64,000 bases of DNA, from positions 2,231-66,230 of the forward strand of contig JBAZAX010000006.1 in the NCBI GenBank assembly GCA_041671765.1, read 5' to 3'. Position numbers and translations under genes: made by a program. Below, in pieces: positions 5,294 through 54,886 of the stretch; the stretch's first letter is position 1, and every line of letters starts with the position of its first letter. Source of the DNA: Candidatus Babeliales bacterium (lineage in GTDB: Bacteria > Babelota > Babeliae > Babelales > RVW-14). The notes beneath the pieces are model-generated. The model did no database searches and had not been told where the DNA came from. It saw nothing but the letters and a program-made list of their open reading frames with translations.

Positions 5294-6352
5294 CTAATCC
5301 AAAGCATCAGGCCAGAAAAAAAGAACTCCACAATCTAGTTGTTCTTTATAAATCAGATCATCAAGCATATTTCTTGTATTTCCTGGAATTTTTCTTATCA
5401 AAGGCCTACCCTGACATTCTCTGAAAAAATCATCACAGAAAAACCAAGAATTGTTATAGTTTACATAAGCTGCACAATGTCCACAAAATGCGCTGGAGAC
5501 TGTTTCTGCTGGATTCAAACCAACCCCTAATTTCGTTGAGCATTTAACAGCTTTTAGTTTATATGTTTTTTCTGTGCCGTAAGTAAAAGAGATTTGAGTG
5601 AAAACAGATTCAAGGCTAGATATAATTTTATAAAAAATATCAGGGTTATACATTGGCTCTGATATGGGTTTTACTATAAAAAGATCCAACGATGGGATAA
5701 AGAGCAAAAAGAAATTTAATCCATAATCATTAAATCCCTGCACGCACAATCTCGAATCCCCATAAATATATTGAACCCCATTTTTCATAGGCAATCGCAT
5801 AATTTTTTTTAAAGAGAGAAGAGTGTTTTGTTCGTGGGAATAAAAGAAAGCTTTAAGTTCTGAGCCTGAAATTTCTTTTAATAAAAGGTATTCTGATAGC
5901 AAGGGAATGCCGCCAAAACCGCAATCTCCGATTTCTTGGCGGTACATACTATTCATGTACTTAAAAATCTCCCAACAGGGGGAATTTGAACAATTAATTA
6001 TCTGATCGCGTAGTTCTGAAATTCTTGGATCAGCAAGTTTTTTTGATGGCTTATTTAAAAAGGACCAAAGTAATTCTTCATCACAAGAAAATCTTAAAAG
6101 ATTTTCTCTTAATATTTTAAGTTGAACTTCTAACCCATTTTTAGGTTCTTTTATTTGATCTATGAATAAACAAAATTTGGGACATTGTAACAAACATTGG
6201 AAAATTGCATTACAAAAACAAATTCCCCTTTCTACGTCATTATAAAATGGGATAGGAAAAGTTGGCTGACCAGGAGAAACCATTGCAAAAATTGGCAGCC
6301 CAAGGTTTAGGTTAATGTTTATAAACAGTAGTAATAAAATTTTTAGATGCAT
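5294..6352 (-). CDS. Eukaryote-like ubiquitin-specific protease (USP/UCH, peptidase C19-like) with N-terminal leader
   Basis: Cys box ERGICFCNAIFQCLLQCPKF, with the predicted catalytic Cys45 at nt 6218-6220. His box CGHCAAYVNYNNSWFFCDDFF near the C-terminus. Leader MHLKILLLLFININLNLGLPIFA followed by Met24. Confidence 0.75.
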   Translation of the reverse strand: MHLKILLLLFININLNLGLPIFAMVSPGQPTFPIPFYNDVERGICFCNAIFQCLLQCPKFCLFIDQIKEPKNGLEVQLKILRENLLRFSCDEELLWSFLNKPSKKLADPRISELRDQIINCSNSPCWEIFKYMNSMYRQEIGDCGFGGIPLLSEYLLLKEISGSELKAFFYSHEQNTLLSLKKIMRLPMKNGVQYIYGDSRLCVQGFNDYGLNFFLLFIPSLDLFIVKPISEPMYNPDIFYKIISSLESVFTQISFTYGTEKTYKLKAVKCSTKLGVGLNPAETVSSAFCGHCAAYVNYNNSWFFCDDFFRECQGRPLIRKIPGNTRNMLDDLIYKEQLDCGVLFFWPDALD

Positions 6353-7032
6353 AAAATAAATGCCCAGGTTAACAAACCTGTAAAAAAAACGGAATCGAAA
6401 CGATCTAAAAATCCTCCATGTCCCGGCAAAACATTACCAACATCTTTTAACCCGTTATGACGCTTTAATATGGAAATTAGCATACCGCCAAGAAACGCTA
6501 CTATTGTGAAAATTAATGAAATTAAAAGAATTACGATAACTGTTAAGATTGTAACTTTACAAAAATAAGAATAGATTGGTTCAATTTTGATATTTGGTAA
6601 AAGAAAAAAATTTAAAACTACCACAGCCACAAAGCTACCAAAAAATCCTTCCCAAGATTTGCCTGGACTAATTTTGGGATAAATTTTATGAACGCCCCAT
6701 ATTTTCCCAACAAAATAGCCAAATGTATCGGCAGTCCATGCAACCAAGAATGGATACATAGGTATAGCTAAATCGACCTGATGAAATCGATAGTTAAGAA
6801 AAATTAAACTTAGCACCGGAAAAATTGGATAAAAAACGGTTGCAATCCATGAGTATGGCGAATCAAAATCAACAAGTTTTGGCCATTCAAAAAAAAGAAC
6901 CAAAACAAGAATTATAAACATCAATAATGAGAACATTGCAACCGAATGCAAATATGCTCCACCAAAACAAAAAATTATAGCTAACGATGTTAGCAAGCGT
7001 TTAAAAAATTCAGCACTAAAAATAAAAATCAT
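6343..7032 (-). CDS. cdsA: Phosphatidate cytidylyltransferase
   Basis: ADTFGYFVGKIWGVHKIYPKISPGKSWEG and GHGGFLDRFDS signature motifs. Polytopic membrane protein. Confidence 0.9.
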   Translation of the reverse strand: MIFIFSAEFFKRLLTSLAIIFCFGGAYLHSVAMFSLLMFIILVLVLFFEWPKLVDFDSPYSWIATVFYPIFPVLSLIFLNYRFHQVDLAIPMYPFLVAWTADTFGYFVGKIWGVHKIYPKISPGKSWEGFFGSFVAVVVLNFFLLPNIKIEPIYSYFCKVTILTVIVILLISLIFTIVAFLGGMLISILKRHNGLKDVGNVLPGHGGFLDRFDSVFFTGLLTWAFILCI

Positions 7033-7820
7033 TTCTTATAAACCACCTTTCGTAAACAAAGACCACAAGCATCAGCCTTAAGCAACGTTTGCCTTGGATC
7101 TGGAGAGTCTAACAAAGTCTTTAGATAGTTTACAGATAAATTTTCGCGACGTGCAACATCTAGTGCATATCCAACCATGCGACGAATTTGAAAACGAAGA
7201 AATCCCGGTCCTTTTACAGAGACTCTGAGTATTCCGAATCGATCGAACCGTTCTAATTTTATACTGTCAATTGTACGTACAGTGCTTTTACCAAGTACGC
7301 CATCAGATGCTTTATCCTCTACATCAATTTTACAAAAAGACCCAAAATCATGTTCCCCTGTATACAAATTTAAGGCATTTTCAAATTTACCTAAATCAAC
7401 CTGATCCATAAATTTGTACAACCAACCGTAACGTGCTACAAATGGTAATGGCCGCTTTAAAAAGATATGATAATAATACGTTTTTTGTGCAACATTAAAA
7501 CACGCATGAAAATCATCCGGCACTTCTTGTAGATCGCGAATTAATATACTTTTGGGTAGCATATTGTTCCAAGCTGATTTAATGATATTCAAATCTAGAT
7601 CAATCTCTGACCTAAACATTGCCACCTGCTCCAAAGCATGCACCCCAGAATCTGTACGTGATGCGCCAATCAAATTTATTTGATGTCCAAAGACTTTATG
7701 AAAAGTTTGTTCTAGAGTAGATGAAATTGAAACGGCTTCCGGCTGTTTTTGCCAGCCAAAAAAATCAGTTCCATCGTAAGCAATAACTGCTTTTATCTTT
7801 TGACTTTTCAATTTTTGCAT
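7029..7820 (-). CDS. truA: tRNA pseudouridine(38-40) synthase
   Basis: IAYDGTDFFGWQKQPE and GASRTDSGVHALEQV (catalytic Asp motif). 4-nt overlap with cdsA. Confidence 0.9.
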   Translation of the reverse strand: MQKLKSQKIKAVIAYDGTDFFGWQKQPEAVSISSTLEQTFHKVFGHQINLIGASRTDSGVHALEQVAMFRSEIDLDLNIIKSAWNNMLPKSILIRDLQEVPDDFHACFNVAQKTYYYHIFLKRPLPFVARYGWLYKFMDQVDLGKFENALNLYTGEHDFGSFCKIDVEDKASDGVLGKSTVRTIDSIKLERFDRFGILRVSVKGPGFLRFQIRRMVGYALDVARRENLSVNYLKTLLDSPDPRQTLLKADACGLCLRKVVYKK

Positions 7821-7898
7821 ATTTTCCCCAAAATTTGAGCTCTATTTTGCAAAACAGAAATTTTAAACGCTAAGATTATTATACCCATAAAAATTAAG

Positions 7899-53252: not shown

Positions 53253-53273
53253 AAATAAAAAAGCTTACTCATA

Positions 53274-54041
53274 ATGGAAAATATAAGAAAATTACTTTTA
53301 ACAGGTTTTATTGTGGGCTGTGCTACTGCTAATATACTTGCAATGGAAGGGCCTGAAACGCAAGACACACAAGAACTTAGATCAACTGGCATTGATAGCT
53401 TATTAAATATATCAGATGATCTAACAGATAAAATATTAGAAAAAATTTTGGCACAGTATATCGAACCGGATATAAATGCATTAACTCTTAGCAAACTCGA
53501 AATAGCAATCAATAAGCTAAAAGAATTGCGCCTAATAAATAAAAGACTAGCAAAGTTTTTAACATATACAGAAGTCATAGATATTTTAAGGGCTGCAAAT
53601 ATAGGTTTATATGCTAATCAAGTCAACCCTGATACGGGCGAAGCATTGTTACACATGGCTATAAGAACAGGAAGTATTGCCTTAGCCAGAATATTAATTA
53701 AATCAGGAGTTGATGTTAATGTGGCACTTATAACACCAAGAAGTCCAAAATTCACTAAGCGCTTCCCTATCGGATCAACACCCCTACATATTGCTGTAAA
53801 AATGGGATATGCAAATATTGTGTCGCTATTAATACAACACGGCGCTGATATTATGGCTAAAACGGTCAGCCATAACCCACGAAACAACAACATAACCCCA
53901 TTGGATATTGCAAGATCATTTCAACGACAAGAAATCATTGAAATACTTGAGGCTGCCTATCAAACAAGCGGATTAGCTGTTCCTCATATTGCTGTTGCCA
54001 TATATCCAAATGTAAGGTCCCTAGATTTTTCAAATATGTAA
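53274..54041 (+). CDS. F-box-like/ankyrin-repeat protein 2 (leader-bearing)
   Basis: Paralog of 52404..53252: ISDDLTDKILEKILAQYIE ... LRLINKRLAKFL, then GEALLHMAIRTGSIALARILIKSGVDVNV and GSTPLHIAVKMGYANIVSLLIQHGADIMA. Leader ends ANILA followed by Met24. Confidence 0.75.
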   Translation: MENIRKLLLTGFIVGCATANILAMEGPETQDTQELRSTGIDSLLNISDDLTDKILEKILAQYIEPDINALTLSKLEIAINKLKELRLINKRLAKFLTYTEVIDILRAANIGLYANQVNPDTGEALLHMAIRTGSIALARILIKSGVDVNVALITPRSPKFTKRFPIGSTPLHIAVKMGYANIVSLLIQHGADIMAKTVSHNPRNNNITPLDIARSFQRQEIIEILEAAYQTSGLAVPHIAVAIYPNVRSLDFSNM

Positions 54042-54076
54042 AATAAAACAAAATAATTAGAATTAAGGATTGTGTT

Positions 54077-54886
54077 ATGAAAAACATAAAAAAATTACTC
54101 TTAACAGGATTTATCATAGCGCTTCCTACTGCAAATTTGCTTGCAATGGAAGATATCGCACAGGCTCCTGAATCCGCGGCCGCTATCGCTGGAACAACAG
54201 TCGCTACTGCAGAACAACCGCTGCCATTTGTTGCAGAAAATGTAGATTTTTCATATCTACCTGATTTAGCGTTGGAAAATGTTTTAGCTCGATATATTGA
54301 AAGCGATTTAGCAAACGCAAGTAATCAAGCCAAACTTCTTGAAGAAGTTGAGCTTGCAATCAACAGACTAAAAAACCTAAGATTAATTAATAAAAGATTC
54401 GCAAGTTTTTTAACATATCAAACAATTATATCTATCTTAATAAATGCAAATATAGTTATGCTCGCCAACAGAATTGACCTTGATAATGGTGAAACTTTGC
54501 TACACAGAGCCATACGTACTGAACGAATTGTGTTATCAAAAATTTTAATTGATGCAGGGGTAGATATTAATATGCCGCTTGTAAAGCCAAGAAATCCGAT
54601 CATGACTAAACGTTTTTCGATTGGAACAACGCCTTTACATACTGCCGCAATGCTGGAATGCCCTAATCTTGTAAATTTATTAATACAGCATGGTGCTGAT
54701 ATCACCGCAAAAACGACTAGCGACATCCCAAACAAAAATAATCGCACAGCATTGGATTATGCAAGAGCTAGAAACCACGCCAACATTATTGCAATGCTTG
54801 AAACTGCCTTCCAAGCAAGAGGCTTACCTATCCCTACAGTAGAAGTACCAATATTACCTCCTGCAGTAACTTATATAGAATTTTAA
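54077..54886 (+). CDS. F-box-like/ankyrin-repeat protein 3 (leader-bearing)
   Basis: LPDLALENVLARYIE ... LRLINKRFASFL, then GETLLHRAIRTERIVLSKILIDAGVDINM and GTTPLHTAAMLECPNLVNLLIQHGADITA. Leader ends ANLLA followed by Met24. Confidence 0.75.
   Translation: MKNIKKLLLTGFIIALPTANLLAMEDIAQAPESAAAIAGTTVATAEQPLPFVAENVDFSYLPDLALENVLARYIESDLANASNQAKLLEEVELAINRLKNLRLINKRFASFLTYQTIISILINANIVMLANRIDLDNGETLLHRAIRTERIVLSKILIDAGVDINMPLVKPRNPIMTKRFSIGTTPLHTAAMLECPNLVNLLIQHGADITAKTTSDIPNKNNRTALDYARARNHANIIAMLETAFQARGLPIPTVEVPILPPAVTYIEF

Follow-up and report, generated by a model that had tools for sequence, protein, structure and literature searches.

Seven proteins encoded in a 64,000-nucleotide stretch of a Candidatus Babeliales genome (contig JBAZAX010000006.1 of assembly GCA_041671765.1, positions 2,231 to 66,230; hereafter the window) begin with a predicted Sec-type leader of 21–25 residues that is followed directly by methionine. 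At one of these loci, which encodes a RING-H2 protein in the window, two strains carry the same leader in front of unrelated mature proteins (cargos), and the DNA that they share stops at the Met codon and resumes at the stop codon. We propose, with a probability of roughly 45%, that an export module was joined at this Met to a complete cargo open reading frame (ORF) that kept its own initiator ATG.

The Babeliales belong to the Dependentiae (candidate phylum TM6), of the amoeba-parasite type; Dependentiae are widespread parasites of protists and carry large sets of eukaryote-like proteins. No type III, IV or VI secretion system was detected in Babela massiliensis. In the window, which has a G+C content of 35%, housekeeping genes (those for DnaG, RpoD, Lon, BipA, MurJ and others) are intermixed with eukaryote-like genes, and the window proteins recur on metagenome contigs from Rifle groundwater. 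The related-strain loci compared here, L004, L005, L007, L017, L019, L020, L025 and L033, were found by using Lon and homologues as anchors, and claims of generality draw on about 300 kb of related Dependentiae sequence. Two further loci, L018 and L023, are not from Dependentiae (the G+C content of one is 57%, and the other encodes a eukaryotic kinesin). L023 was excluded, and L018 was used solely among the non-Dependentiae control loci in the automatic scan for Met at +1. Cleavage sites were predicted from the -3/-1 rule only. Leaders were counted by hand curation and with a crude heuristic signal-peptide caller, which produces both false positives and misses.

One leader with two unrelated cargos

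The features that define the exchange are the following, where SD stands for Shine-Dalgarno.

46931..47018, + strand: RING-H2 export module, consisting of an SD site (AAAGG), a 23-codon leader (46944-47012, MKLIKKIMLSILITGSMGSTAFG) and the junction Met codon (47013-47015), as delimited by blastn against L020
47016..47516, + strand: RING-H2 cargo ORF, the mature part of a 190-residue protein (46944-47516); zf-RING_2, E=2e-8
47558..47593, + strand: GC-rich, terminator-like hairpin closing the cargo slot (GTAGCCCCGACAGG...GCTGGGGCTTTATTT; GTAGCCCCGRCAGG…GCTGGGGCTTT), kept behind both cargos

In L020, the slot after Lon encodes a 320-residue ankyrin (Ank) protein (4156-5118) with the leader MKFIKKIMLSILIAGSMVSIAFG-MKRD, compared with MKLIKKIMLSILITGSMGSTAFG-MEKS for the RING-H2 protein (here and below, the hyphen marks the predicted cleavage site). 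By blastn, window 46931-47018 matches L020 4143-4230 over 88 nt at 88.6% identity, an interval that covers the SD site, the 23 leader codons, the ATG and 3 nt beyond. The identity of this block equals that of the flanking DNA (84–90%). Shared DNA restarts at window 47538, corresponding to L020 5122, just past both stop codons and ahead of the shared hairpin. The strains thus differ exactly in the mature coding sequence, from the post-Met codon to the stop. BLASTP of the RING-H2 protein against the L020 ankyrin protein aligned residues 1–32 only. The L020 cargo, a 296-residue ankyrin, has no homology to the RING-H2 cargo, and no other relative of either cargo was found among the loci compared. 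One leader carries two unrelated cargos, and the break falls at the ATG and the stop codon.

A hairpin similar to that closing the slot lies at about 12470-12510 in L005, a strain without the RING-H2/AAA_14 segment.

The proposed history is as follows. The export module would comprise an SD site and 21–25 leader codons ending in Ala or Gly, and a genome would hold many such resident leaders, unrelated to one another. Cargo ORFs would be swapped behind a resident module by recombination, and cleavage by signal peptidase would then release the full original protein. The junction Met would be the cargo's original start codon, and the remaining Met-junction families would have had the same history. 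Later, the Met would be retained in some families, either through a constraint on the Ala-Met pair or as a harmless N-terminal Met, and would decay to Ala, Ile, Ser or Thr in others.

A bolder extension, which we consider unlikely, is that the Babeliales possess export slots. In such a slot, complete foreign or paralogous ORFs would be placed, start codon included, behind a resident SD-plus-leader module, and the native eukaryote-like Met N-terminus would be released. The ATG would then serve both as the recombination joint and as a guarantee of an unaltered, host-stable protein. If true, export slots would be a modular route that turns any cytosolic gene, including one derived from eukaryotes, into a Sec-exported effector.

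The seven leaders and their translation

All seven ORFs and all seven junction ATGs lie where the initial annotation had placed them. Apart from the RING-H2 gene, they are listed here together with a first F-box-like paralogue that belongs to the same leader family.

5294..6352, - strand: USP-like (C19-like) protein, 352 residues, predicted to be exported; leader 6284-6352 (MHLKILLLLFININLNLGLPIFA), junction Met codon 6281-6283
24765..25805, - strand: Ank + RING protein, predicted to be exported; leader 25737-25805 (MNQKFYTFKILILFALLNFDLFA), junction Met codon 25734-25736
27350..30865, - strand: polymorphic-toxin-like protein, 1171 residues, with a C-terminal Cytotoxic (colicin-E3-like) domain; leader 30803-30865 (MKFKNILIYLFVVNQVGLSNG), junction Met codon 30800-30802
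33256..35370, - strand: tandem-UCH (USP) protein, predicted to be exported; probable start GTG 35358, leader end 35284 (MKKNFHVLSMLFVLFQALLQVNLYA), junction Met codon 35281-35283; UCH, E=1.8e-48
52404..53252, + strand: F-box-like/Ank paralogue 1, same leader family, no junction Met (TCT GCA GCA ATA = S A A I)
53274..54041, + strand: F-box-like/Ank paralogue 2; leader 53274-53342, junction Met codon 53343-53345
54077..54886, + strand: F-box-like/Ank paralogue 3; leader 54077-54145, junction Met codon 54146-54148

Two residue numbers change. The toxin Met had been numbered 26; its start is the ATG at 30865, which has a GGAGG SD site, and not the TTG at 30877, giving a leader of 21 residues and Met as residue 22. 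For the tandem USP, where Met had been numbered 30, the likeliest start is the GTG at 35358, which has a GGGGG SD site (NCBI record P0019 begins MKKNFHV); the leader has 25 residues and Met is residue 26. The Met does stand at exactly residue 24 in the other five ORFs, a position that merely reflects a common leader length of 23, found among non-Met leaders as well. A resemblance between the RING-H2 and F-box leaders had also been pointed out; it is confined to the n-region (MKxIKK) and has no counterpart in the DNA. As to domain labels, Pfam supports Ank + RING, RING-H2, Ank, UCH in the tandem USP and Cytotoxic in the toxin, and leaves F-box and the 352-residue USP below threshold. Of two paralogues scanned for F-box at a lax threshold, one gave a match (E=0.088) and the other none, and the UCH match of the 352-residue USP (E=0.025) covers the Cys-box region only. 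The first 10 nt of the latter gene (window 6343-6352) overlap the stop of cdsA.

Each of the seven leaders has Lys or Arg within residues 2–9, an uncharged hydrophobic core and a c-region with N, G, P, S or T. Position -1 is Ala in five and Gly in two, the residues at -3 are I, L, A, I, L, S and L, and Pro is absent from -3 through +1. The non-Met leaders of this organism also often have Leu or Ile at -3. Alternative A-x-A cut sites lie 2–4 residues upstream in F-box paralogue 2 (ATA-N) and in the RING-H2 protein (STA-F). Three other leader classes were considered and rejected: a lipoprotein (signal peptidase II) leader, as none of the seven has a Cys at or adjacent to the junction; a Tat leader, as RR is absent from all seven; and a type IV prepilin-like leader, as the hydrophobic segment precedes the junction, polar or acidic residues follow Met, and there is no conserved Glu at +5. 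By these predictions, these accessory, host-directed proteins carry genuine signal peptides of the Sec type (signal peptidase I).

A possible lipoprotein site with the same following residue occurs in a separate 220-residue ORF (35588-36250, - strand), where a lipobox-like FKFASC precedes Met (C-MVYQ); L004:1301-1963 keeps it (FADC-MVYQ).

Several lines of evidence indicate that the leaders are translated. The organism uses SD sites: predicted SD pairing has a median energy of -5.0 kcal/mol at 48 starts in the window and of -1.7 kcal/mol at 285 internal ATGs. Energies at the seven first starts (-2.4, -4.9, -3.9, -0.3, -4.9, -10.5 and -9.6 kcal/mol; median -4.9) are like those of real starts, and an SD site stands ahead of the first start in five of the seven, F-box paralogue 2 and the 352-residue USP being without a clear one. 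The junction ATGs resemble internal ATGs, with values near 0 kcal/mol (1.4 to -2.4) except for a badly spaced -5.1 in the toxin. The Ank-RING gene is typical, with a TAAGGA SD site before the first ATG and none before the junction ATG. An open, signal-peptide-like leader is retained in homologues of the USP family (31–80% identity), the F-box-like/Ank family (40–83%) and the tandem USP (52%). For the USP family this applies to all six full-length homologues, each with Ala at -1, and with M, M, M, M, A and I at +1. Indels within leaders are in frame (+4 residues in P0003 and P0010, -2 residues in P0021) and leave Met directly after Ala; thus P0021, the 52%-identical homologue of the tandem USP, has a leader 2 residues shorter and retains CA-M. 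Leader codons show synonymous changes, and leader DNA is conserved at the level of the coding flanks, whereas the DNA upstream of the leader is not.

These observations bear on an annotation artefact, in which the junction Met would be the true start and the "leader" an untranslated AT-rich stretch. At 35% G+C, upstream DNA does tend to read as rich in I, L, F, K and N, and the two first ATGs without a clear SD site would fit such a stretch. An untranslated stretch would not account for the placement of SD sites at the first start instead of the junction Met, for in-frame indels and an open, signal-peptide-like frame in all homologues, even at 31% identity, for the invariant Ala or Gly at -1, or for the conservation of leader DNA like that of its coding flanks. 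We consider the artefact very improbable. The initial annotation had named an untranslated upstream part as the finding that would overturn its proposal; the SD sites, the kept frame, the in-frame indels and the synonymous changes speak for the opposite, and the leaders are, on this evidence, translated and conserved.

Dual initiation, also raised by the initial annotation, would yield an exported form from the first start and a leaderless cytosolic form from the junction ATG. The junction codon is ATG in every case and is kept within each family, and in one assembly a gene caller chose the internal Met17 of an identical RING-H2 protein, which shows only that the call is ambiguous. Apart from the weak, badly spaced site in the toxin, no SD site precedes the junction ATGs (about 0 against -5.0 kcal/mol). 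A leaderless-mRNA promoter before a junction ATG was also considered and rejected, as inspection by eye found no -10-like hexamer at the right distance. The residue that follows the junction Met is D, E or Q in 7 of 11 families, compared with 4 of 48 true starts (P=2e-4), which typically have K, N or I. The Met is replaced in relatives by Ala, Ile or Ser, residues unable to initiate translation, and a protein aimed at the host ubiquitin system would have no obvious use as a cytosolic copy. Dual initiation is therefore improbable.

Frequency and spread of methionine at +1

The initial annotation held that Met at +1 exceeds chance, and the counts agree. Among hand-curated leader-bearing ORFs of the window, 7 of 19 have Met at +1 (binomial P=2e-8 against the 1.77% frequency of non-initiator Met), or 6 of 18 when the two F-box paralogues are merged (P=5e-7). 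Enrichment is weaker when the cut site is left free, with P=3e-3 over 5 positions and P=0.04 over 9. A count that uses no cleavage prediction finds [AG]M at residues 18–32 in 8 of 48 window ORFs, against about 1.6 expected, and seven of these eight are the leader-bearing ones. In the crude automatic scan, the best predicted site is followed by Met in 11 of 41 distinct leader-bearing ORFs of the near clade and in 1 of 16 in unrelated control loci.

At least five further families in related strains have Met after Ala or Gly:

L007:395-2686: NNA-MED; counterpart of window 38048-41854 (YSA-TNQ)
L019:17134-20175: LIA-MQE; the window allele at 61180 has LFS-SVE and the L020 allele LIA-AQE
L017:241-1125: LNA-MKK
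L033:9365-9940: LQA-MDK
L020:4156-5118: AFG-MKR

The L033 member is a 191-residue ankyrin-like gene with a leader of its own (MKFKNISLICVIHLGLFMGSVLQA-MDK), located between cdsA and the USP gene. The window allele of the L019 family (61180-64000, + strand) runs off the window end and is hypervariable: its upstream DNA is 97% identical to that of L019, and the coding sequence diverges from about codon 3. Compared with L019:17134-20175 and L020:17436-20537, its post-leader linker has indels of 11 and 24 residues, and +1 is S, M or A.

Met is far from universal at this position. Most leader-bearing window proteins have another residue at +1, and in some close relatives of the Met-junction proteins Met is swapped for A, I, S or T. 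The substitutes are A or I in the USP family, A or I in F-box paralogue 1 (whose orthologues P0004-P0008 have A-A or A-V), and A or S in the family of the window ORF at 61180. In the distant Dependentiae contigs sampled, Met at +1 occurs only on members of the USP family; on one of them, L030, two ankyrin proteins have A-QKP and only the USP homologue has A-M. A lineage-wide +1 rule of the Q-rule type is not what the counts describe, as Met stands on about 27–37% of leader-bearing proteins in this sample of about 300 kb. A lineage-specific cleavage or sorting motif, suggested by the initial annotation, could still operate in part of these proteins; it is not general, given the prevalence of other +1 residues, the A, I, S or T substitutes and the distant A-Q proteins. 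A metagenome scan with the F-box/Ank alignment returned a single locus.

A nucleotide motif, GCAATG, was considered as the conserved element and rejected. GCA is used in 5/5 window cases with Ala, but it makes up 45% of Ala codons; moreover, two further families use GCC, and GCA occurs in 8 of about 19 non-Met leaders.

An alternative to a recombination joint is that Met at +1 is selected for a role in the mature protein, such as shielding from N-degron recognition in the host cytosol, fit to the P1′ pocket of signal peptidase, or later sorting (type II secretion, vesicles). Among the 11 F-box-like/Ank members outside the paralogue-1 clade, which are 40–80% identical, the -1 Ala and the +1 Met are the sole invariant positions from -8 to +9, and Met persists across leader indels and a linker shortening of about 25 residues. 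Window proteins with eukaryote-like domains (Ank, RING, UCH, sub-threshold USP-like, F-box-like) have Met, or Ala or Ile in F-box paralogue 1. At this position N, G, D, R, T, Y, K or S is found in the remaining leader-bearing ORFs, most of which have no Pfam domain; a methyltransferase and a pentapeptide protein are among them. Precedents exist for both a host-side and a lineage-specific role: in anthrax lethal factor, potency in the cytosol is decided by the N-terminal residue by way of the N-end rule (PMC2518864), and the Bacteroidetes Q-rule is a lineage-specific rule for +1 (PMC5837995). Selection is harder to square with close relatives that have A, I, S or T in place of Met, and it leaves the break in DNA homology between alleles at the ATG unexplained. 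Shielding from N-degrons in particular does not explain the choice of Met, as Ala, Ser, Thr and Gly are equally stabilising, and I, Q, L and Y, which are destabilising in eukaryotes, occur at +1 of Dependentiae USP, Ank, UCH and pentapeptide proteins. We regard selection on Met as possible though on the unlikely side.

The reading of the Met as a joint between export module and cargo ORF must itself be set against several observations. A clean swap at the Met codon is seen at one locus only. The initial annotation had suggested a comparison with orthologs that lack the leader; for the USP family, a search of 1.84 billion representative proteins found no leaderless homologue that starts at the junction Met. 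F-box-like proteins keep the Met as strictly as the -1 Ala amid hypervariable flanks, and thus selection on Met fits this family better than a neutral relic does. The families of the window ORFs at 38048 and 61180 have an ancestral leader and Met only in some alleles, a pattern that would require either mosaic replacement of the 5′ end or a leader module that includes the Met. The cut sites are predicted, and a cut exactly before the Met is probable rather than observed. We know of no mechanism that joins modules exactly at an ATG. Finally, blastn of the -40..+110 modules against the window and the eight related loci detected no similarity among the seven window leaders except between the F-box paralogues. 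This last result also decides part of an earlier proposal, in which a portable leader cassette had been grafted onto the native ATG of acquired genes. The grafting onto an ATG is borne out at one locus, by the RING-H2/Ank swap at the Met codon, and the seven leaders form no common cassette; a single shared cassette is ruled out, as the leaders are unrelated at the DNA level.

Other shared 5′ modules, accessory islands and known systems

Further, weaker cases of shared 5′ ends with divergent bodies are found in the window and in L017. The window toxin and its L017 counterpart agree in 17 of 22 leader residues, both have G-M, and their leader DNA shows 96.5% identity over -18..+39; the remainder of the protein is 25–33% identical or unalignable. 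A pentapeptide gene in L017 has the toxin-type SD site and first codons at its 5′ end. The leader-bearing ORFs 23390-24694 and 25994-26719 have 53 nt in common (23352-23404 and 25956-26008; 90.6% identity), extending from -38 to +15 and including the MLKKI codons, and show no protein homology after the shared 53 nt. Exact leader DNA gave no match to viral contigs. A concatenated-leader query of 5.8 billion proteins returned only the source proteins, under an E-value ceiling of 10 that is too strict for 25-residue matches.

Two accessory segments contain four of the seven Met-junction genes (Ank-RING, toxin, tandem USP and RING-H2) and are absent from sister strains:

22437..35586, unstranded: 13-kb accessory island with Ank-RING, toxin, pentapeptide proteins, tandem USP and four other ORFs; absent from L004 and L005
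46823..49019, unstranded: 2.2-kb accessory segment with RING-H2 and an AAA_14/DUF4143 gene; absent from the close strain L019 (flanks 96–97% identical), L004, L005 and L025

The four other ORFs of the 13-kb island are three leader-bearing ones and a 181-residue ORF downstream of the toxin. Part of the island adjoins IS3-type transposase genes in L017. The F-box-like array also varies, with 1, 2 or 3 copies by strain.

Signal peptides on Dependentiae effectors are already known. They are predicted on 79 of 126 ankyrin proteins in Babela massiliensis, and on 78% of ankyrin proteins and 44% of all coding sequences in Chromulinavorax destructans; in B. massiliensis, the Sec pathway and type II secretion are the only export route detected (PMC4378268, PMC6561590). 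The effectors of these two organisms, from the same phylum as the window, fall into the same classes (Ank, F-box, RING, C19 ubiquitin hydrolases) and have Sec signal peptides. A search by term of the text of PMC4378268 and PMC6561590 returned nothing on the +1 residue or on modularity of leader and cargo. To what these two papers describe, the present analysis adds the Met at +1 and the exchange at its codon.

Among known systems in which one 5′ module serves unrelated mature parts, the Erp (OspE/F-related) proteins of Borrelia burgdorferi come closest to the arrangement described here, in that a 5′ module, consisting of regulatory DNA and a leader at an allelic site, is joined to independent, recombining mature parts (PMC10016077). 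A shared 5′ module with an exchangeable mature part, as in Erp, is found here at one locus, with two weaker cases elsewhere. Erp proteins differ in being lipoproteins (signal peptidase II, Cys at +1) encoded on prophage plasmids, with one module for the whole family. The leaders described here are type I, many and unrelated, the joint is a Met, and one swap is documented.

For a lineage-specific +1 residue, the Bacteroidetes Q-rule is the closest parallel, as a strongly non-random residue follows the signal peptidase I site; under this rule Gln stands at +1 of signal peptidase I substrates and is cyclised to pyroglutamate (PMC5837995, PMC10653852). The Q-rule differs in applying to most exported proteins of a phylum and in having a dedicated enzyme, whereas Met here is found in a minority of proteins, mostly accessory or effector-like.

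The gene at 27350-30865 also resembles polymorphic toxin loci, with a conserved 5′ module, a divergent body, a C-terminal Cytotoxic domain and a separate ORF in L017 that matches residues 726–1131. Such loci combine a constant N-terminal trafficking part with interchangeable C-terminal modules and orphan modules. In polymorphic toxins the exchange takes place at the C-terminal toxin domain; here the joint is at the signal-peptide boundary, and effectors other than toxins have it too.

If it holds, the Met joint would offer a simple signature for candidate effectors in Dependentiae genomes. It would also model how acquired genes gain export, by placement of a complete ORF behind a resident leader, and it would link the residue exposed by signal peptidase to the fate of the protein in the host cytosol. 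Annotators would be cautioned, too, against taking the internal ATG as the gene start.

A number of other features of the toxin region and of the window were observed. Toxin residues 726–1131 are 49% identical to a separate 408-residue ORF in L017, and in this respect the locus resembles a polymorphic-toxin locus. The 181-residue ORF (26788-27333, - strand) is a possible immunity protein; its 59%-identical L017 copy is not adjacent to the toxin. The toxin-related coordinates in L017 are 14644-18642, 19072-20298 and 22160-22705. The tandem USP and the adjacent leaderless 430-residue pentapeptide-repeat ORF (31890-33182, - strand) correspond to one 1196-residue ORF (P0021) in L017:10001-13591, and the window pair is either a split gene or an unfused ancestor.

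A SAM (S-adenosylmethionine)-dependent methyltransferase (14603-15412, - strand) has a signal-peptide-like N-terminus (MILHRFLPIVISFFMTTCMA-SPV), which is kept in L033:349-1161, and could be exported. Lastly, the RpoD-type sigma factor (9323-11743, - strand; 806 residues) has a long Lys/Ala-rich, histone-H1-like N-terminal extension that is kept in L033.

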